A stretch of DNA of 64,000 nt, from positions 1,312,001-1,376,000 of the forward strand of contig OZ242376.1 in NCBI GenBank assembly GCA_965209085.1, read 5' to 3'. Below the pieces are notes generated by a model. The model saw only the letters and a program-made list of their open reading frames with translations. It searched no databases and had not been told where the DNA came from. The position numbers were made by a program, and so were the translations under genes. How positions within the stretch are numbered: the stretch's first letter is position 1; each line of letters begins with the position of its first letter. Of this stretch, positions 1 to 7,413 are shown one piece after another. This DNA is from Nitrosopumilaceae archaeon. Lineage in GTDB: Archaea; Thermoproteota; Nitrososphaeria; Nitrososphaerales; Nitrosopumilaceae.

Positions 1-418
1 TATGATGTGACAGATACAAAATTCCAACATAACGCAGATCACCTATTGGAACTGACAAAAAAAGTCATATGTAAATCTCCAAAACATTTCACTACTGACG
101 GACTTCCGGCATACGCCAAATCATCTAAACGTGTATTCGGTAAAGATACACAATATCATGCACACATTCACTTGCGTAGACCGCAACAATAACAAAATGG
201 AACGGTTTAATGGAACCTTTAGAGATCGTGAATTGGTATTTAGAGGTTTAAAAAAATCAGATACGCCTTTGATCGGTGGCCATCAAGCATTTTACAATTA
301 CACTAAAAAACACATAGGTCTTGGCGGCAAAACTCTAGCAGAGGCTTCAAACATTAAAGTTGCAGGATTAAATAAATGACAAACTTTGATACAAAATGCT
401 AGTTTGCATACTTATGAA
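1..418 (+). pseudogene. IS6-family DDE transposase pseudogene (C-terminal fragment)
   Basis: ORFs 7..192 and 131..379 together match the C-terminus of 1912..3027 (TTDGLPAY, NNKMERFNGTFRDRE). There is a frameshift near 180 and a TGG->TGA stop at 377-379. The remaining QTLIQNASLHTYE is still readable up to 418. Confidence 0.88.
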
Positions 419-588
419 CGTTTTTCCCAAATGTGTGAAGTTTTTTTCTGAAATTCATCAAACTGTAATGAAGTTTTATTAAAAATATCCCGTGCTTCTT
501 CTTTTGTCATTTTATCATGTTCACATAACCAATCTAAAAGTGCCACCATTGGAGTATATTGATTGTTTAATGTATCGCCTTTGACCAT
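412..588 (-). CDS. Small hypothetical cargo protein (58 aa, MVKGDTLNNQYTPMVALLDWLCEHDKMTKEEARDIFNKTSLQFDEFQKKTSHIWEKRS)
   Basis: Manually translated ATG588..TAA412, below the ORF-track cutoff. It converges on the transposase end, as 1616..1906 does in the intact element. Confidence 0.5.
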   Translation of the reverse strand: MVKGDTLNNQYTPMVALLDWLCEHDKMTKEEARDIFNKTSLQFDEFQKKTSHIWEKRS

Positions 589-638
589 ATTGAATCTTGT
601 AATATATTTTATGAATAAATATGTTTTTAGTCAATCCA

Positions 639-721
639 GGCACGAGGTCACATCATGCCTAGAATTTACACAATAAATGAATATGTAGGCATAAAATAGC
701 ATGAGGTGCTGACCTCGTACC
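639..721. repeat. Imperfect ~83-bp inverted repeat / hairpin
   Basis: GGCACGAGGTCA (639-650) pairs with TGACCTCGTACC (710-721) at 11/12 positions, and pairing extends inward with bulges (CATCATGC / GCATGAGGTG). Confidence 0.6.
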
Positions 722-904
722 AATCCTGAGAAGATCCATATTTCACGCCTGACGCCTAAGTGTTGATAACTTTACAGAATCTAAAATTCTACATACTGTG
801 ATCAGAATTGAGACCATATCCCTAAGTTAACAGAAAAACACCCTAAATTAACAGCAGGTTGGAAATCGTGGAAAAGCCCTAAGAATTACCAGAGTATGAT
901 ATCA

Positions 905-929
905 GGTTCTGTAAACTTATCGGTGCATA
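905..929 (+). repeat. Terminal inverted repeat of IS6-like element (left in window)
   Basis: 25/25 reverse-complement match to 3920-3944. Confidence 0.92.
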
Positions 930-991
930 GGCGTGGATATGGATCTTCTCTGAATTGATTGTTTTATATGTTGGAATATGAGTTAAAAATT

Positions 992-1210
992 ATGAGTGAT
1001 TTATTGGATATTGATCGGATAGTTCCAGAACTGCCAGAAGGTTCACGTATGGATATGGTAGAGTGGGCAAATATGTTAGATGTTAAATTGCGAACATTAG
1101 ATGGTCGTACAAATAGTGCATTTCAGTACCGAGATAAAAGATATAACCAATTACAAGAATTGATTTCTACCATAGAAAAAGAAATTGATGATTTGAAAAA
1201 AAGACCATAA
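992..1210 (+). CDS. Small coiled-coil cargo protein A
   Basis: ORF 959..1210; the ATG at 992 lies downstream of TATA-like TTTTATAT (962-969). Has a VP...EWA motif and a C-terminal heptad pattern (LQELISTIEKEIDDLKK). Confidence 0.65.
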   Translation: MSDLLDIDRIVPELPEGSRMDMVEWANMLDVKLRTLDGRTNSAFQYRDKRYNQLQELISTIEKEIDDLKKRP

Positions 1211-1221
1211 TAAAATTTATC

Positions 1222-1259
1222 AAAAAGTGATCATTTTTTGAGTAAGATCAATAAAGGGG
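1222..1259 (+). promoter_or_regulatory. Duplicated promoter/operator module copy 1 (TGATC-N13-GATCA + AATAAAG)
   Basis: 35/38 identical to 1560-1597, with the same 28-nt offset from the end of GATCA to the ATG. Confidence 0.7.
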
Positions 1260-1277
1260 CATATTTTAAAATACATT

Positions 1278-1514
1278 ATGAGTTTAGCAGCTACTGTCCC
1301 AAATGAAGCACCAAATTGGTTTAGAGAGTGGGCAAAGGGTATGGATAGAGATACAATATTTGGAACTGCGATATTAGAACAATCGGACTATACATTGGAA
1401 AGTGTAAAGAGGGATTTTGGAAATTTTAATACACGAATGGATAAAATGGATAAAGATATTTTAGAGATAAAAGATGATATAAAAACTATAAAGAAATTGT
1501 TGACTAATAAATAA
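1278..1514 (+). CDS. Small coiled-coil cargo protein B
   Basis: 78-aa ORF with a VP...EWA motif and C-terminal heptads (MDKMDKDILEIKDDIKTIKKLL), preceded by the duplicated promoter module. Confidence 0.72.
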   Translation: MSLAATVPNEAPNWFREWAKGMDRDTIFGTAILEQSDYTLESVKRDFGNFNTRMDKMDKDILEIKDDIKTIKKLLTNK

Positions 1515-1559
1515 TTTATCGGTTTTATTCAGGTTCTGCAAATCATCTATGGATTGACA

Positions 1560-1597
1560 AAAAAGTGATCTTTTGTTGAGTTAGATCAATAAAGGGG
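1560..1597 (+). promoter_or_regulatory. Duplicated promoter/operator module copy 2
   Basis: 35/38 identical to 1222-1259; upstream of ATG1616. Confidence 0.7.
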
Positions 1598-1615
1598 TAG
1601 ATTGCATGATGTAGT

Positions 1616-1906
1616 ATGAGTAGATTAGATGAAATAAAATCTGTAAAAGATGTTACTGAACGTGATATACAAGAGTGGTGTGGCGATTTACGAAAACATG
1701 ATGATAAGGCGTTTAAATATATTGGTTGGTTGTTTTGGGTTCATCACGATTTTCTGAAATCGGGGTTTGAAGAAACGAAAGTTGCTATTAAAGAAATGAA
1801 AGATGATATTGAAAAAGTGAATGATAAATTGGTTAGTATGGATTCAAGGTTTGACAGCATGGATTCAAAATTGGATTCCATAAATGAAAAATTAGAAAAG
1901 TTGTAA
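1616..1906 (+). CDS. Small coiled-coil cargo protein C
   Basis: 96-aa ORF with an EWC motif and a heptad-repeat tail (LVSMDSR/FDSMDSK/LDSINEK). Confidence 0.72.
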   Translation: MSRLDEIKSVKDVTERDIQEWCGDLRKHDDKAFKYIGWLFWVHHDFLKSGFEETKVAIKEMKDDIEKVNDKLVSMDSRFDSMDSKLDSINEKLEKL

Positions 1907-1911
1907 TGCAA

Positions 1912-3027
1912 TTATTCATACGTATGCAAACTAGCATTTTGTATCAAAGTTTGCCATTTGTTTAATCCAGCAACCTTAATGTTTGAAGCTTCAGCAGGCG
2001 TTTTGCCACCAAGTCCTATGTGTTTTTTAGTGTAATTGTAAAATGCTTGATAGCCACCGATCAAAGGGGTATCGGATTTTTTCAAACCTCTAAATGCCAA
2101 TTCACGATCTCTGAATGTACCGTTAAAGCGTTCCATTTTATTATTATTACGATCTTTGCGTAAATGGATATGTGAATGATGTTCCGTATCTTTACCAAAT
2201 ACACGTTTAGATGATTTGGCGTATGCAGGAAGTCCGTCAGTTGTAAAATGTTTAGGCGATTTGCCTATGGCATTTTTTGTGAGCTCTAATAGACGATCTG
2301 CATTATGTTGGAATTTTGTATCTGCCATGTCATAAGCAAGGAAATAACGGGTTTGATCATCTATGGAAGCAAAAAGATATTTTTTCTGACCTGATACTTT
2401 GAGCCATACTTCATCAGCTCTAACCCATGTACGATCAGCGGTTCTTGGAATGATCTCATTTAGGTATTTTTCAACCATACGAGAATATTTGGCAATCCAT
2501 TTGTAAACTGCCATGTGGGATATTTTAATTCCCATCATCTCATAATGGTTGGCAATATCACGGACTGACATACCCGTGAAATACATTTGCATATCTCCAG
2601 TAATAGTAGAGGGTAAAACACGGGTATTTTCAAAGCCAAAGTTTGTTGTAAAAATTTTGGTACATTCTTGGCATTGATACTTTTGAAGTTTGCCGTGCCT
2701 ATTGGTTCTATAACCACGTTTACGTAAATTACCCGAACTGCAATATTTGCATAGGTTGAGCTTTGATCGTTCCATGATTTTAAATTCATTATTGGCATAT
2801 CCACGATTTTGTTTTATTATCTTTATAATGACATGAATATGTTTACAGTCGGATTTGCGGTATTGATGATCAGGGCATTCGCATACAAGACCGTTTCCAG
2901 TCCTAGAGACCGTATAGTATTTGTCGGGCGTGGACATGGATTTTACTTTGAATGTGTGGGTATCGGTTTGAGTTATTGCATTTGCCGTTTCTAGTATTTG
3001 GTTTGCTTGTTGTTTGCGTGTATTCAT
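1912..3027 (-). CDS. IS6-family DDE transposase with N-terminal SWIM zinc finger and Zn ribbon
   Basis: SWIM motif CECPD-x6-CKH; CxxC...CxxC ribbon (CKYC, CQEC); DDE motifs RADEVW, TTDG and NNKMER. Confidence 0.9.
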   Translation of the reverse strand: MNTRKQQANQILETANAITQTDTHTFKVKSMSTPDKYYTVSRTGNGLVCECPDHQYRKSDCKHIHVIIKIIKQNRGYANNEFKIMERSKLNLCKYCSSGNLRKRGYRTNRHGKLQKYQCQECTKIFTTNFGFENTRVLPSTITGDMQMYFTGMSVRDIANHYEMMGIKISHMAVYKWIAKYSRMVEKYLNEIIPRTADRTWVRADEVWLKVSGQKKYLFASIDDQTRYFLAYDMADTKFQHNADRLLELTKNAIGKSPKHFTTDGLPAYAKSSKRVFGKDTEHHSHIHLRKDRNNNKMERFNGTFRDRELAFRGLKKSDTPLIGGYQAFYNYTKKHIGLGGKTPAEASNIKVAGLNKWQTLIQNASLHTYE

Positions 3028-3037
3028 ACAGTTGGTA

Positions 3038-3097
3038 TTAAGAGTACGCTTAATATATGTATCTGTTAATAGTACGCTTAATTAAGAGATCGCTTAA
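3038..3097. promoter_or_regulatory. Three 16-bp near-palindromic operator-like sites between the divergent transposase and AbrB-like genes
   Basis: TTAAGAGTACGCTTAA (3038-3053), TTAATAGTACGCTTAA (3066-3081), TTAAGAGATCGCTTAA (3082-3097). Confidence 0.75.
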
Positions 3098-3127
3098 TTA
3101 ATATGGTAATAGGTTATTGCACCGTGT

Positions 3128-3298
3128 ATGACACGGTGGAAAAAAGATGAGACGGAATTTACAGTCAGCTTATCACATGACGGTGGGCTTGGAATGATTG
3201 CACGCATACCTAAACCAATTAGGGAAGAGTTGGGCAATCCTACCAAGATTAAATTTCTAAAGTATAAGGGTAAAATATTAGTAGATTCTGGAGATTAA
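3128..3298 (+). CDS. AbrB/MazE/SpoVT-like small DNA-binding protein (56 aa)
   Basis: Manual translation MTRWKKDETEFTVSLSHDGGLGMIARIPKPIREELGNPTKIKFLKYKGKILVDSGD; the IPKPIREELG...KIKF...GKILV pattern fits a swapped-hairpin fold. Confidence 0.72.
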   Translation: MTRWKKDETEFTVSLSHDGGLGMIARIPKPIREELGNPTKIKFLKYKGKILVDSGD

Positions 3299-3304
3299 AA
3301 CGGT

Positions 3305-3445
3305 TCATAGAATTTTGCGATCACGGATAAGGCGTGTGCAATATTCAAGACCATGACTGCGATTTCTAAATATTCCCGATTTTACCTGTTTGTCAATCCA
3401 TCTTAAGATTTCAGCTTCTATGGATATGGCGATCTTATGCTTCAC
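3305..3445 (-). CDS. Ribbon-helix-helix (CopG/Arc/MetJ-like) DNA-binding protein (46 aa)
   Basis: Manual translation from GTG3445: MKHKIAISIEAEILRWIDKQVKSGIFRNRSHGLEYCTRLIRDRKIL. Pattern is a beta-strand KIAISI, a helix, then the G.F.NRS turn typical of RHH proteins. Confidence 0.75.
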   Translation of the reverse strand: MKHKIAISIEAEILRWIDKQVKSGIFRNRSHGLEYCTRLIRDRKIL

Positions 3446-3452
3446 ATGGTAC

Positions 3453-3497
3453 AGTATGACTAGGTATGATTAAAATACGGTATGATAAAGTCATACT
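3453..3497. promoter_or_regulatory. Operator-like repeats between the divergent RHH gene and the membrane-protein gene
   Basis: AGTATGACT (3453-3461) is inverted with AGTCATACT (3489-3497); GGTATGAT direct repeats at 3463 and 3479. Confidence 0.6.
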
Positions 3498-3500
3498 TTT

Positions 3501-3878
3501 GTGAGTGCAGTTAAGGGATTTCTAGCAGGGGGGTTTACAGTATTTGTATTTTTTATCATAGTATTGACAGGTTTTGCACTAGATTCAGATATTGAATATA
3601 CGAATGATTCAGGTATTGCCCATACGAATGAATTAAACTATACGGATAGAGCAGTACTGATAAAATTAGCTCAAAACTGTTATGGCAGAGATACTGATTG
3701 CTATGTAAAAAATTTGGGGTATGGGTTGGATAATAATGATAAATACATAATAGAATCATGGACAAATACTTGTCAGACATTTAGCAAATATCAATATGAT
3801 CGTTGCTGGAGTATAGATAGCGAGGATGCTGGCATAATTACTAGCATACGAAATATGCACTTAAAAGCGGAAAAATGA
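3501..3878 (+). CDS. Membrane-anchored/secreted hypothetical cargo protein with 4 Cys
   Basis: 125-aa ORF with an N-terminal hydrophobic segment (FLAGGFTVFVFFIIVLTGFAL); lies inside the TIRs. Confidence 0.7.
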   Translation: MSAVKGFLAGGFTVFVFFIIVLTGFALDSDIEYTNDSGIAHTNELNYTDRAVLIKLAQNCYGRDTDCYVKNLGYGLDNNDKYIIESWTNTCQTFSKYQYDRCWSIDSEDAGIITSIRNMHLKAEK

Positions 3879-3919
3879 CGATTTTTGGTTGATTTGGTTG
3901 ATCGCTATTTATGGTCAAA

Positions 3920-3944
3920 TATGCACCGATAAGTTTACAGAACC
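3920..3944 (-). repeat. Terminal inverted repeat of IS6-like element (right in window)
   Basis: TATGCACCGATAAGTTTACAGAACC, exact reverse complement of 905-929. Confidence 0.92.
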
Positions 3945-3987
3945 AAGAATCGCACAGCTTATATACACAAGTACCGTACTTTACGGT

Positions 3988-4095
3988 ATGTTACGGTGCG
4001 AATACTGTACAAGAATCTTTGGCGCGACCCACAACGGGTTTGCAGAAAAGACGTTCCATGAGTTATTACATGGTCCAAATGTGGTAAACAGCTAA
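3988..4095 (+). CDS. C2H2-type zinc-finger microprotein (35 aa)
   Basis: MLRCEYCTRIFGATHNGFAEKTFHELLHGPNVVNS has CxxC...HxxxH. The longer ORF-track version (3889) runs through the IS TIR, so its 5' part is unlikely to be coding. Confidence 0.5.
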   Translation: MLRCEYCTRIFGATHNGFAEKTFHELLHGPNVVNS

Positions 4096-4141
4096 AAGCT
4101 AGCCACATACCAATATTTTTTTAAATCATTACATTTCCTAT

Positions 4142-5383
4142 ATGGTATTGACAGTCAAAAAGAAAAAATCAAAAAAAGCATCCGTAAAACGATCGGCTAG
4201 GCCTGTAAAAACAAAAGCATCCAAGCCTGTAAAATCAAAGACTGCTAGACCGACAAGGCCTGTAAAAACAAATGCTTCAAGATCGGCAAATACAGACAAG
4301 AGTATGACTTTGATCATAGAATCGACAAAAACGGTCTCAAAGGAGATAAAGACAATCTCAAAGATCTTTACGGACAATCAAAAAATACTGGAATCCATGA
4401 AAACCATGATAACCACCCTCTCTGGAACCATGCAGCACATTGACAGGCATTCCAAACAAATTATGCTGTTGGAAAATGAATCTCAAAAAATTCAGGCGGA
4501 CCTGCGCCAGGTAAATCAAAAGGCAGAGTCTGTGAAACCATCAGGCGCAATTAATGGCAATATTGAAAAAAGACTGGTCGCAATTGAAAACGAATCAAAT
4601 TTTGTACAGGTAAAGGAAATAATGTCAGAATGTCTTAAAATTACAAAAACTAGCGGACAAACTTTGGATAAAATATCAGATTATCTAAATAGTGCATCCA
4701 ATACAAACGCTGACAATATTGAATCAAAACTCGACGCCAATGCCAAGATGCTTGATGATGTCAGAAAACATCTTTACGATCATGTGCAGGATGGTGCGGA
4801 TAAAAATATCAAAAATGAAATCTCTGAAAAAATATCGACAATTTCTCGCGAGATTGCAGGATTACGCGAGCAGATACGCAGCGTTTCAGATGCGCAAATA
4901 ACTGACGAGCTTACAGACCACATGAGTGCCATATCCTCAAAAGCGGAGGTTCTCATGGGCATTCCGGCAGAATTACTAGAGATGCAGTCCCGTCTGAATT
5001 CCATAGAAGGAAAAATTGCAGAGAAAAAAGATTCCAGTGAAAAACAGCCATCAATTACGTTGCTAGAATATCAGGTAAAAATTCGCATGAATTCAGAATC
5101 AAAGTACGGGGATACAGACGAGCTGCAATCCATGATAGATCAGACCTCCGAGGTACTCCAAACAATTGAAAAAAACAAAAGCACCGGTATTTCAAAATGG
5201 GGCGTTTCACGCATTTTAGAGTGCGCCGACAGATGGGAGTTGCGATTCTCAGATGTACTAGCAATGATGAAAGATACGCTTGGTGCAGACATACTAAAGG
5301 AAGCAATTCGGATAAAACAGGTCAAAGACGTATACGGTGTGCGCGCAGTAGAGGATACAAAATCCCTTTTGGGTTTAGACTAG
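4142..5383 (+). CDS. Coiled-coil hypothetical protein with Lys/Ser-rich repetitive N-terminus
   Basis: 413-aa ORF with RPVKT-type repeats followed by long heptad regions. Confidence 0.8.
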   Translation: MVLTVKKKKSKKASVKRSARPVKTKASKPVKSKTARPTRPVKTNASRSANTDKSMTLIIESTKTVSKEIKTISKIFTDNQKILESMKTMITTLSGTMQHIDRHSKQIMLLENESQKIQADLRQVNQKAESVKPSGAINGNIEKRLVAIENESNFVQVKEIMSECLKITKTSGQTLDKISDYLNSASNTNADNIESKLDANAKMLDDVRKHLYDHVQDGADKNIKNEISEKISTISREIAGLREQIRSVSDAQITDELTDHMSAISSKAEVLMGIPAELLEMQSRLNSIEGKIAEKKDSSEKQPSITLLEYQVKIRMNSESKYGDTDELQSMIDQTSEVLQTIEKNKSTGISKWGVSRILECADRWELRFSDVLAMMKDTLGADILKEAIRIKQVKDVYGVRAVEDTKSLLGLD

Positions 5384-7413
5384 ACTCCGGGAGGCGGTAT
5401 TTTATCAGGTTCTGTAAGAGTGTCTTTTTTGTGCTTTAATGCTGCAAAGATTACGATAATCAGAGCTGCCCATAGTACTGAAATTATGATGTTTGAAATG
5501 CTCACATATGTATACGGTATTGCATCAAGTATGTGATCGGATATTTCCTGGGATCGTGCTTTCATATCCAACATTCCGGTATTGTACGCAGAGCTGTCCG
5601 CAGATATGGTTGCAAGAATTTGTACGCTTGAGAGCATTGTGTCAAGATCCCGCTGCATTCTCGCATAGTTTGTAGTCTCCGTAGGGAATATCCACACAGG
5701 GTTGCCGTCTCTTGGAAGATTACTCTTTATGGACAAAATATACTCTTGAATGTCCTGCGGGTCAGAGCTTGCAGATATTGCATCCAAAAGTCCTCGAGAC
5801 AGATCCAGGGGGTATACCTGCGAGGAGTATCCAATGTAGGCAGTTATCCCTCCGGCCACTATGAGTGCAAGGATGCCAGATAATGCAATTTTGTATGTAA
5901 TATTTGCCATTCTTTGCTCCCTGGAAATTGGTGCATTTAGCTTTGATTTATTTGTTTTAAAACGCGAATGAGAGATGCTCATTATTGCAATATACAAAAA
6001 TCCGATGGTTGGAATCAGTATTACTGGGACAAATGACGGATTGTTGGAGTATATTGCAATCATAACGCCGAATATTCCGTAAATGCCAAAGAATATTTCA
6101 AGCAGGGTCGTCTTTGTGAACGGCAAATTGTAGGCTTTATCGTCCCATTTGTCGGATTTTTTTAGTATGCCGTATTTTGGAGTGCGCAGAAATTCGTTTT
6201 TTTTGCCAAAAATGGCATCAAATACGGCCACAGTGTTGTTTACGGACAGCCCCGCATTGTATATTATAAGATACGGCAGCTGTTGCAGTTTTGAGGGCCA
6301 GGATTTGCCGTACATTTTTTGTATAATCAGGGCGTATGCAAAAGGACCCATTGCAATGTACGTGGCAAGAGTCACGGCGGGAAGATAGCTTACGATGTAC
6401 AGATTTACCTCTGAGGCAAGCAGGATTGGAAGTGTAAGAAACTGCAGCAGTATCAGCGGGAATACGATATGGCGCGTAAGCTGGATAAACGCCTGTATTT
6501 TTGTATCAACTTGTATTTTTCTTTTTACGGCAATACTTGCTCCCTGTTTTATGGCGCACTGTATGGATCCTTTTGCCCATCGAAACTGCTGCCTTTTTAC
6601 TGCATTCATTTGCACCGGCAGTTCAGCATCAACTACAATATCCGGTAAAAATATGCATTCCCATCCGCGCATCTGTGCACGGTAGCTTAGATCAAGATCT
6701 TCAACCAATGTTGTAGAATGCCAGCCGCCTGAATCCTCTATGCAGTTGCGCCGCCACACGCCAGCTGTTCCGTTAAAATTCATAAATAAATGCGAATGAC
6801 TCTTTGCTTTCTGCTCTATAAGAAAATGAAAGTCCAAGCTCATCGCCTGCGCCTGCGTTATGGAAGAATAGTTTTCATTTGCATGTCCCCACCGGCACTG
6901 GATAAATCCAATGTTTGGTTTTGAAAAATGTGGCAGTACGCGCTTTAGAAACCACGGTTTTGGCATAAAGTCCGCATCAAATATGGCCACAAAATCCGTG
7001 TTTGTCATACTCATGGCGTATTTTAACGCCCCCGCCTTGTAACCGGACCGCGTTGGGCGCCGGACATGCTCTATACGGAATCCCAATTCACGGTATTTTT
7101 TTACAAGATTTGCGACAAGTTCCACGGTATCATCATCAGAATCATCTAGCACCATGATTCTCATCTGCTCTTTTGGATAATCTATTTTACATACTGCATC
7201 AATCAGCCTTGTTGCAACGTATTTTTCATTATATATTGGAAGATGTATCGTAACTGAATCAGCTTTGAATGCCACAACGCTCAAGTTTACAATACGGCGT
7301 GAAGAGAGCAGGACAAGATAGTAAAAATTCAGCGTATACATTGTGATTACAAGTGCGGATACGAGAAAAAGATTGAAAATGGCTCCCATGAACGGATTTA
7401 AGACGATTTCCAT
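5380..7413 (-). CDS. GT2 family glycosyltransferase (cellulose synthase-like), membrane
   Basis: DDSDD, KAGAL, FDADF, LVEDLD and QQFRW motifs; multiple TM helices. Confidence 0.92.
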   Translation of the reverse strand: MEIVLNPFMGAIFNLFLVSALVITMYTLNFYYLVLLSSRRIVNLSVVAFKADSVTIHLPIYNEKYVATRLIDAVCKIDYPKEQMRIMVLDDSDDDTVELVANLVKKYRELGFRIEHVRRPTRSGYKAGALKYAMSMTNTDFVAIFDADFMPKPWFLKRVLPHFSKPNIGFIQCRWGHANENYSSITQAQAMSLDFHFLIEQKAKSHSHLFMNFNGTAGVWRRNCIEDSGGWHSTTLVEDLDLSYRAQMRGWECIFLPDIVVDAELPVQMNAVKRQQFRWAKGSIQCAIKQGASIAVKRKIQVDTKIQAFIQLTRHIVFPLILLQFLTLPILLASEVNLYIVSYLPAVTLATYIAMGPFAYALIIQKMYGKSWPSKLQQLPYLIIYNAGLSVNNTVAVFDAIFGKKNEFLRTPKYGILKKSDKWDDKAYNLPFTKTTLLEIFFGIYGIFGVMIAIYSNNPSFVPVILIPTIGFLYIAIMSISHSRFKTNKSKLNAPISREQRMANITYKIALSGILALIVAGGITAYIGYSSQVYPLDLSRGLLDAISASSDPQDIQEYILSIKSNLPRDGNPVWIFPTETTNYARMQRDLDTMLSSVQILATISADSSAYNTGMLDMKARSQEISDHILDAIPYTYVSISNIIISVLWAALIIVIFAALKHKKDTLTEPDKIPPPGV

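Follow-up and report, generated by a model that had tools for sequence, protein, structure and literature searches.

The stretch of DNA analysed in this study, hereafter the window, comprises 64,000 nucleotides (genome positions 1312001-1376000) of a Nitrosopumilaceae archaeon genome (G000), which is assembled as a single contig of 1,693,554 bp. At its start lie two copies of a transposable element of the IS6 family of insertion sequences (IS), copy 1 decayed and copy 2 intact, that face each other with their right ends, and both carry unrelated DNA between the transposase stop codon and the right terminal repeat, an interval referred to below as the slot. A first-pass annotation, made from the sequence alone, had proposed that this interval is a variable cargo slot whose content was swapped exactly at the transposase stop, and that the locus is an insertion hotspot. 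The features concerned are as follows, in window coordinates (ORF, open reading frame).

1-418, forward strand: copy 1, decayed 3' part of an IS6-family transposase gene, recognised by homology to the copy 2 gene
412-588, reverse strand: orf58, convergent ORF of 58 aa in the copy 1 slot, overlapping the transposase 3' end by its final two codons and stop
642-716, no strand: 75-bp multicopy repeat resembling a miniature inverted-repeat transposable element, within the copy 1 slot but not part of the IS6 element
721-781, forward strand: right-end module of copy 1 (right inverted repeat, IRR), with subterminal motif at 721-750 and degenerate terminal repeat at 765-781
782-904, no strand: spacer of 123 bp between the two right ends, in which 819-904 is a copy of the repeat Rep-S
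905-3944, reverse strand: copy 2, IS6-family unit of 3,040 bp with passenger ORFs on both sides of the transposase gene
905-958, reverse strand: right-end module of copy 2, composed of a 25-nt terminal repeat (905-929) and a conserved subterminal stretch
959-1911, forward strand: slot of copy 2, with three small coiled-coil ORFs (A, B and C) convergent with the transposase gene
992-1210, or 959-1210 if starting at TTG, forward strand: slot ORF A, coiled-coil
1278-1514, forward strand: slot ORF B, coiled-coil
1616-1906, forward strand: slot ORF C, coiled-coil
1912-3027, reverse strand: transposase of 371 aa, with N-terminal Cys/His clusters and a DDE_Tnp_IS240 domain
3128-3298, forward strand: D, 56 aa, divergent from the transposase gene and conserved in related elements
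3305-3445, reverse strand: E, 46 aa, with weak ParD/ribbon-helix-helix-like matches below the cut-off
3501-3878, forward strand: F, 125 aa, with a hydrophobic N-terminus and no family match
3920-3944, reverse strand: left terminal repeat of copy 2 (left inverted repeat, IRL), complementary at 25/25 positions to 905-929

Homology between the two copies ends at the transposase stop

The two transposase genes are 89% identical over 241 nt (178-418 against 1915-2155) and 85% identical over 176 nt (1-176 against 2159-2334), giving 87.4% over 459 nt once the 39 nt upstream of the window are included. The last shared letters are ...CATAC[T/G]TATGAA (position 418 in copy 1, 1915 in copy 2), followed by TAA in copy 2 and by CGT in copy 1. 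Similarity resumes at 721-741 against 937-957 (21 nt, 90%) and at 752-792 against 894-934 (41 nt, 73%), around the end module of about 60 nt (721-781 compared with 905-958), and a sensitive blastn of both loci found no other match between the two slot intervals. Copy 1 is truncated at its 5' end near residue 217 (genome 1311962), has lost 2 nt at 177/178, is interrupted by an in-frame TGA at 377-379 and lacks a stop codon of its own, while its terminal repeat shows three mismatches in the first 18 nt and the tip GA, not GG. Copy 1 is an immobile, 5'-truncated and frameshifted relic of a sister lineage that carried orf58, and copy 2 is an intact slot-bearing member that carries A-B-C. The description given in the first-pass annotation, namely a decayed copy lying tail-to-tail with its sister at a distance of 123 bp (outer ends at 781 and 905), with homology ending at the last transposase codons and resuming only at the ends, and with orf58 in one copy and A-B-C in the other, was borne out on every count.

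The copy 1 slot (419-720) holds orf58 and the 75-bp repeat. No second copy of orf58 was found in G000, a large protein collection contains one homologue (64 aa, 76% identical), and neither a family match nor, in a metagenome scan, any relative was detected. The 75-bp repeat, which has inverted ends, occurs in more than 25 copies genome-wide with 84-97% identity; because this multicopy repeat sits in the copy 1 slot, part of the difference between the two slots is due to a later, unrelated insertion.

The loaded unit of copy 2 has moved as a whole

The transposase of copy 2 matches Pfam PF13610 with E 1.4e-15 (58.1 bits, cut-off 27), and its SWIM match reaches only E 0.089. The terminal repeats, GGTTCTGTAAACTTATCGGTGCATA, are complementary at 25/25 positions (905-929 against 3920-3944) and carry the GG tip and CTGT; short terminal repeats with a GG tip and a cTGTt motif are given for IS6 ends in the description of the family by Varani et al. 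2021 (PMC7986276). The 'caaa' motif of IS6 is present in these ends only as TAAAC. Besides the transposase gene, six ORFs (A-F) lie within the repeats, and B and C share a 69-nt upstream repeat of 78% identity. None of A-F occurs in G000 outside the two copies of this element described in this section, and neither PADLOC nor NCBIfam assigned a slot ORF, D, E or F to a supported family. In 300 genomes of the family, the C protein had no homologue except two coiled-coil matches (E ~1e-4), and its scores in a protein atlas (<= 0.83) serve as leads only. An Rfam search of window positions 1-6000 gave no match at E <= 0.1, and a scan for sigma-70 promoters and terminators, a model that does not apply to archaea, stayed at shuffle level.

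A second genomic copy of this unit is located at 570889-575328, with 99.69% identity over window 905-2819 (1,915 nt) and 99.91% over 2815-3944 (1,130 nt). Its transposase gene is split by a 1,395-bp DDE_Tnp_4 element with a 5-bp duplication, and the whole copy is flanked by an 8-bp target duplication (...TGTGATAA|element|TGTGATAA...). Because this twin is identical from repeat to repeat and bears the 8-bp duplication, the 3,040-bp unit, passengers included, moved as a whole.

This finding bears directly on the reading as an artefact, according to which the region is mis-assembled, or the true end of the IS lies at the transposase stop and the distal repeat is flanking DNA that matches by coincidence. 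In favour of this reading, no target duplication surrounds the window copy, and repeats are plentiful in the region. However, the second copy is identical repeat to repeat with its 8-bp duplication, and six slot-bearing elements, in six genomes or contigs, carry an 8-bp duplication beyond the distal end. A Logan contig of run X1 (1,570 nt, window 382-1951, one mismatch) furthermore runs through the copy 1 slot, both right ends and the whole A-B-C slot; because run X1 may be the source sample, this contig does not count as independent support of the assembly. Loose ends of contigs at 904 (runs X2 and X3) and at 3944 (X2) continue into the flanks of the second copy, and those at 2815/2819 into the element inserted therein. 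The artefact reading is hence largely refuted, and we regard it as scarcely credible.

Nine lineages in G000 share the two breakpoints

Nine lineages of the element in G000, the two copies in the window among them, share the transposase 3' end and the end module and have different DNA in between. The other seven are listed below with genome coordinates.

c1466, ~1465892-1466471: relic with transposase 3' remnant, unrelated DNA and right-end module
c578, ~578539-579775: relic of the same layout, its right module cut by a DDE_Tnp_4 fragment
c581, ~580880-581589: relic with transposase 3' remnant, unrelated DNA and right-end module
c297, ~297047-297831: relic of the same layout, right end degenerate
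c1245, ~1244889-1245264: relic of the same layout, right end degenerate
s1435, ~1434450-1435358: relic with transposase 3' remnant, unrelated DNA and right-end module
s1079, ~1079470-1079938: ninth lineage, relic of the same layout

After registration of eight lineages on the transposase 3' end, it turned out that seven keep TAA and diverge immediately behind it, while copy 1 diverges 3 nt earlier; s1079 likewise keeps TAA and diverges at the stop. The distances from stop to outer end in these eight are 1,007, 363, 529, 1,187, 580, 704, 250 and 826 nt, and seven of them end in a right module of ~58 nt, CAATYCARAGAAGATCCATAT..CAYGCCTA..CCGATAAGTTTACAGAACC, with the common inner edge CAATYC. In order to measure the sharpness of the edges, mean pairwise identity over the 28 pairs of the eight lineages was compared with mononucleotide shuffles. 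It was 0.750 (0.575 when shuffled) for the last 60 nt of the transposase gene and 0.659 (0.546) for the terminal 60 nt, that is the end module, but only 0.558 (0.565) for the first and 0.555 (0.548) for the last 60 nt of the slot. Since the same two breakpoints recur in nine lineages, the pattern is more than chance. The breakpoint at the transposase stop, which the first-pass annotation had drawn from two copies, is thus common to all nine to within 3 nt, with slot edges at shuffle level in the eight lineages measured.

The contents of these slots are diverse: the three coiled-coil ORFs of copy 2, orf58, a pair of ORFs of 70 and 76 aa, a 97-aa ORF together with an IS fragment, a 123-aa coiled-coil ORF (c581), a 113-aa coiled-coil ORF (s1079), a 50-aa ORF and a 184-aa ORF. 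The cargo genes end 0-30 nt from the transposase stop. The 75-bp repeat of the copy 1 slot is also found, as one inverted copy, in the slot of c581. Solo end modules exist at genome 256787 and 1625967, the latter adjoined by a motif related to the same repeat.

The differences could also have arisen without any swap, if all slots held one ancestral, fast-evolving small coiled-coil gene whose DNA homology was lost. Small convergent coiled-coil ORFs do recur (A, B, C, those of 123 aa in c581 and 113 aa in s1079, and one of 81 aa in the element L069 of another genus, described below), with weak motif matches among them (blastp E 0.003-0.04 in a small set). A profile of A/B/C compared with the ORFs of c581 and s1079 gave no support for homology (hhalign probability 11.7%), and other slots hold a two-gene pair, a 184-aa ORF, a tRNA-Leu gene, or a Trypco2-domain protein with a membrane protein. 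Moreover, the slot contents are at noise level between lineages whose flanks are 84-100% identical DNA, which makes descent from one gene very improbable.

Related elements with and without a slot

Transposase matches at E <= 1e-20 were found in 117 of 301 Nitrosopumilaceae genomes, a count that includes G000 and seven unpublished genomes, all matching (110 of 294 without those seven). A related-loci search of genome contigs with the transposase alone returned only nine loci, mostly distant. Among the best of more than 300 matches, paired repeats marked the bounds of 17 complete elements, namely the two G000 copies, L067, L068, L073, L074, L061, L069, L064, L081, L102, L035, L049, L053, L054, L056 and L059 (no element count includes L051, which comes from the unpublished genome G076). 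The transposase/end core of this clade carries GGTTCTGT... terminal repeats, and GG-tipped repeats are found in the relatives as well. Perfect 8-bp duplications flank 11 of the 17 elements, as listed here.

L067: TGTTTTAG
L073: AACTTTGG
L074: TTAAAAAA
L069: CTATTGTG
L081: GGATTACC
L102: TCGGATTT
L035: ATTTTACG
L053: TGAGATCT
L054: TGTTTGAG
L059: ATAATACG
second G000 copy: TGTGATAA

The relatives measure 1,951-4,801 bp. With the G000 copies counted once, 16 distinct elements remain, and these fall into two groups by how far the outer end lies beyond the transposase match, which itself terminates a few codons short of the stop codon. In seven slot-less elements (L067, L068, L073, L074, L081, L035 and L056) the outer end follows within 40-67 nt, and in the nine slot-bearing ones after 364-1,247 nt. 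In L067, the stop is directly followed by a module containing GAGAAGATCTATAT, like that of G000. Because stop and module are contiguous in the slot-less relatives, the slot represents DNA added at one junction.

An independent replicate of the sister pair in the window was found in G286, a genome of another genus. Its elements L069 and L070 share 84% identity over 1,166 nt up to the transposase stop (L069 position 5100); after 282 and 255 nt of unrelated sequence, identity returns at 89% in the end module of 62 nt. The slot of L069 encodes the 81-aa coiled-coil ORF, and that of L070 a tRNA-Leu(TAA) gene (3747-3834), which converges on the transposase gene and reaches to within 5 nt of its stop. 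The slot of L102 contains a Trypco2-domain protein (E 4.4e-8) and a membrane protein. One case of shared cargo was detected: one of the slot ORFs of c1466 is homologous to a slot ORF of an element of genome G007 (45% over 42 aa, E 4e-12), which has a different end type. The two-ORF content of c1466 and of L061 in G007 resembles the HicAB toxin-antitoxin system in its arrangement as a pair, but no match in Pfam, NCBIfam or PADLOC supported this assignment.

Taken together, the nine G000 lineages, the G286 pair, the slot-less relatives and the 8-bp duplications agree with the proposal of a variable cargo slot between the transposase stop and the terminal repeat, and they support a real and general compartment in this archaeal IS6 clade. 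As judged from the same sequences, the loaded unit moves by ordinary IS6-type transposition, making 8-bp target duplications. The proposed cargo swap fared less well: the contents do differ, yet a swap as such is indistinguishable from independent acquisition, and the copy 1 slot includes the 75-bp repeat besides.

The left compartment and gene D

Extra DNA is located in two compartments, one between the transposase stop and the ~58-nt right module, and another between the left repeat and the transposase start, which spans 50-3,650 nt in the elements examined. Pfam analysis of the left compartment identified N6_Mtase and Methylase_S in L067 (E 3.7e-29 and 5.4e-35) and L068 (1.9e-68 and 2.4e-24), the same two domains fused in a 962-aa protein of L081 (7.9e-61 and 1.4e-27), a CfrBI-type endonuclease (E 6.9e-25) with N6_N4_Mtase (E 3.1e-30) in L073, and NurA (E 5.2e-12) in L074. 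N6_N4 methylases also lie upstream of the closest relatives, in G007 (L060) and G019 (L066), where no left repeats were found that would place these genes inside the elements.

Gene D, located in the left compartment of copy 2, has 26 homologues, none of them annotated, and no match in Pfam or NCBIfam. The AlphaFold2 model of the protein (pLDDT 79.7) gave in Foldseek MazE as the top hit (E 0.14, prob 0.99, TMq 0.67), followed by VapB, AbrB and SpoVT, none with E <= 0.001. This model suggests an AbrB/MazE-like swapped-hairpin DNA binder. D is probably a DNA-binding regulator, and we infer that it may regulate the transposase promoter.

How the slot may be filled

We consider it likely that the two copies in the window belong to a Nitrosopumilaceae-type IS6 clade of unit transposons with passenger genes, in which the slot arises through a permissive junction. 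The core unit consists of the 371-aa zinc-finger/DDE transposase, the terminal repeats and, in many members, the divergent AbrB/MazE-like gene D. The junction between stop and module would be the sole site downstream of the gene that tolerates added DNA without harm to the gene or to the end-binding module, and lineages that acquire or replace DNA there would persist as mobile elements and spread. The sharp common breakpoints would follow if only this junction tolerates added DNA. Nesting of related elements beside each other's ends, with subsequent deletion and take-over by the outer end, probably contributes; the layout of s1079 and a putative end relic in the B-C interval hint at it faintly.

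IS6 elements are known to target each other. G000 contains 16 IS6-type loci, of which six pairs lie within 5 kb, against a simulated mean of 0.86 (at least six in 0.00115 of 20,000 simulations), a pair count that may count fragments of one element twice. For the replicative (cointegrate) and targeted conservative transposition of the family, this clustering and the copies that lack target duplications would be indirect signs at most. Around the window start, a span of 8 kb takes in copy 1, copy 2 and, ~2 kb upstream of the window, a 541-aa IS6-type transposase gene (genome 1308423-1310048, L013 6423-8048; PF13610, E 2e-15). The hotspot suggested by the first-pass annotation is therefore retained as a clustering of IS6 copies; as a special property of this place it is not, since the two 10-kb bins of the locus rank 40 and 50 of 170 in overall repeat cover. 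Across G000, intragenomic repeats make up 22.3% of the sequence, and several 10-kb bins (590-640 kb, 700 kb, 1000-1020 kb and 1490 kb) consist of them completely. The product of the 541-aa gene is intact and 32% identical to the copy 2 transposase; it combines a SWIM motif with an InsA-like zinc ribbon, and its C-terminus extends ~70 residues beyond the conserved LIQNAS motif. Several relatives also have frames of 451-609 aa.

Could nesting by itself account for the slot? A related element would then insert at a resident's right end or immediately beside it, the inner end would decay, and the outer module would take over. In favour of this are the clustering of IS6-type copies, the tail-to-tail and head-to-head neighbours in G000 and the existence of end modules on their own at 256787 and 1625967. 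In addition, s1079 has a 25-nt transposase remnant with a cassette-upstream motif located upstream of it, and the slot of copy 2 includes the following feature.

1524-1560, forward strand: possible remnant of a right end in the B-C interval, TTCAGGTTCTGCAAATCATCTATGGAT, showing the tip and the TATGGAT motif

However, the 10-mer GGTTCTGYAA occurs 32 times in the genome, so that this relic, like another partial match at 5397-5417, is ambiguous. No inner right-end relic directly follows the transposase stop in any lineage, and the shared sequence predicted beside the outer module was not seen. We therefore hold nesting as the full account to be rather unlikely.

A more radical possibility is a dedicated site-specific exchange of cassettes at the stop/module junction, carried out either by a host recombinase or by the IS6 transposase acting on a cryptic inner site, with exchange frequent and precise and an integron-like outcome. 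We know of no IS family for which such a mechanism has been established. The precision of the left breakpoints (0-3 nt in nine lineages) and of the right ones (at the CAATYC edge in seven of eight), the lack of any leftover sequence common to the slot edges, the short distance of the cargo genes from the transposase stop (0-30 nt) and the homologous cargo of c1466 and G007 in elements with different ends are all consistent with it. A single contig of run X2 connects window positions 958 and 1912, omitting exactly the A-B-C interval, at a depth of 93.9 compared with ~4,900 for the neighbouring contigs. This joint, in which the letters between are unread, may faintly hint at a variant with an empty or different slot, but its shorter side (22 nt) is below the reliability guide of the tool (30 nt). 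Against cassette exchange, the transposase is the sole recombinase found among the ORFs of the element, and neither a shared motif nor a hairpin was seen at the registered junctions, where hairpins were not scanned systematically. The conservation of transposase 3'-end DNA is accounted for by the C-terminal peptide NKW.T.IQNAS conserved in the relatives. We regard such an exchange as improbable.

The permissive junction itself meets with several objections. The window copy 2 lacks a target duplication (flanks tgatatca and aagaatcg), c297 and c1245 have degenerate right ends, which were assigned by eye, and the complete elements represent the best matches among those found. Gene D recurs in only four of the nine relatives listed and, next to the transposase gene, in only six of 24 metagenome loci. 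Because most slot ORFs are ORFans without family matches, we infer their status as cargo genes from the length and arrangement of the ORFs. In no case was a step of cargo acquisition captured, and remnants of earlier cargo at the slot edges, some of which replacement by deletion predicts, were not seen. Finally, with a junction only a few nt wide, random acquisition should be rare, and the nine different contents of a single genome may therefore require a dedicated mechanism.

Sequences adjoining the elements

Rep-S borders both copies: the stretch at 819-904 adjoins the right end of copy 2, and another at genome 1311828-1311960 adjoins the truncation point of copy 1, while an uninterrupted Rep-S is found at genome 1304494-1304657. 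The family ends with ...TTACCAGAGTA(TGATATCA), and a stretch inside it resembles the IS6 end module (TAAACTGATCG...TAGGCGTGGAAAT). On the other side, a 413-aa coiled-coil ORF (window 4142-5383) with a lysine-rich N-terminus of KPV repeats directly adjoins the left end of copy 2; it has no supported family (CENP-K, E 9.7e-5, below the cut-off). The partial match at 5397-5417, 19/21 to the flank and first 13 nt of the right end (894-914), falls in the last codons of a 677-aa ORF (5380-7413, reverse strand) and may be an element-end relic that now forms the C-terminus of that protein.

The 1,395-bp element inserted in the second copy (genome 572804-574198; L014 4804-6198) is an IS5-like DDE_Tnp_4 element whose transposase has 398 aa; the c578 slot and the region near 257-260 kb contain fragments of its family. 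Another IS end (...GTTTAATAGNTGACCTCATAC; genome 1624447-1625700) adjoins the transposase remnant at the same position in c578 (579777-579801) and c1466 (1465866-1465890), the slots of which differ. These junctions reflect either a shared, already broken ancestor or site-specific insertion by that element.

Relation to known systems

IS6 elements are usually seen as insertion sequences of one gene, and their passengers move in arrays of the form IS-cargo-IS. The clade described here resembles IS6/IS26 elements (IS26, IS257, archaeal ISH14-type) in its DDE_Tnp_IS240-type transposase, its GG-tip/CTGT repeats and its 8-bp duplications, and the longer IS6 clades in its zinc-finger N-terminal extension. 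Unlike canonical IS6 (~0.7-1.8 kb, one gene), its members reach 1.9-4.8 kb, with up to six further ORFs, the slot and the ~58-nt right module; copy 2, with 3,040 bp and six further ORFs, goes beyond the compactness of the family. In IS26 pseudo-compound transposons and translocatable units, an IS6 element also serves as a vehicle for passengers and copies tend to adjoin, but pseudo-compound transposons carry the cargo between two direct IS copies, whereas here one repeat pair encloses one transposase gene and the duplications flank the unit.

The layout is rather that of an insertion sequence with passenger genes (tIS), since passengers A-F lie inside the repeats in two copies and duplications flank loaded units in G000 and 10 relatives. 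The section of PMC7986276 on passenger genes gives ISDsp3 of Dehalococcoides as the single IS6-family tIS with a passenger gene, and the archaeal IS6 clades presented there are from Euryarchaeota (Halobacteria, Thermococcales, Methanococcales) and Crenarchaeota (Sulfolobales). Like ISDsp3, the present elements carry passengers inside the ends of an IS6-family element; compared by its description, ISDsp3 is single-copy, bacterial and equipped with one hypothetical gene, in contrast to an archaeal clade with two compartments, many contents and a mobile loaded unit.

Integron cassettes offer a functional analogy only, in that alternative, mostly promoter-proximal small genes occupy one fixed junction. 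Neither a tyrosine recombinase, among the element ORFs, nor attC-like sites, at the registered junctions (hairpins not scanned systematically), were found, and membership in the integrons is not supported. With Tn3 and Tn7-like unit transposons (for defence cargo of Tn7-like elements, see the account in PMC8649781) the clade shares a transposase core with variable cargo including restriction-modification, but it differs in its transposase family, its far smaller size and its archaeal hosts.

As to archaea, a 2019 survey of thaumarchaeal mobile elements (PMC6563490) states that no passenger-carrying transposons had been detected in this domain, and by term search the word 'passenger' is absent from a 2026 archaeal IS survey (PMC13343696). 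No description of the clade or of its slot was found in the open-access papers searched. Both tIS and cargo transposons are already known kinds of element, and the archaeal IS6 clade with a variable slot is a new variant of them.

Inside its ends, this clade, widespread among ammonia-oxidising archaea, carries restriction-modification systems as well as numerous small ORFans. If cassette exchange were true after all, the clade would possess a built-in, integron-like platform that swaps coiled-coil ORFans, two-gene modules, a tRNA and conflict-system genes. With its two ends, one transposase and one regulator-like gene, it offers a compact natural system for the study of cargo tolerance in IS6, and of whether exchange at the junction is selected or catalysed. 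For these globally abundant archaea, the clade represents a concrete vehicle for the horizontal spread of defence and accessory genes.

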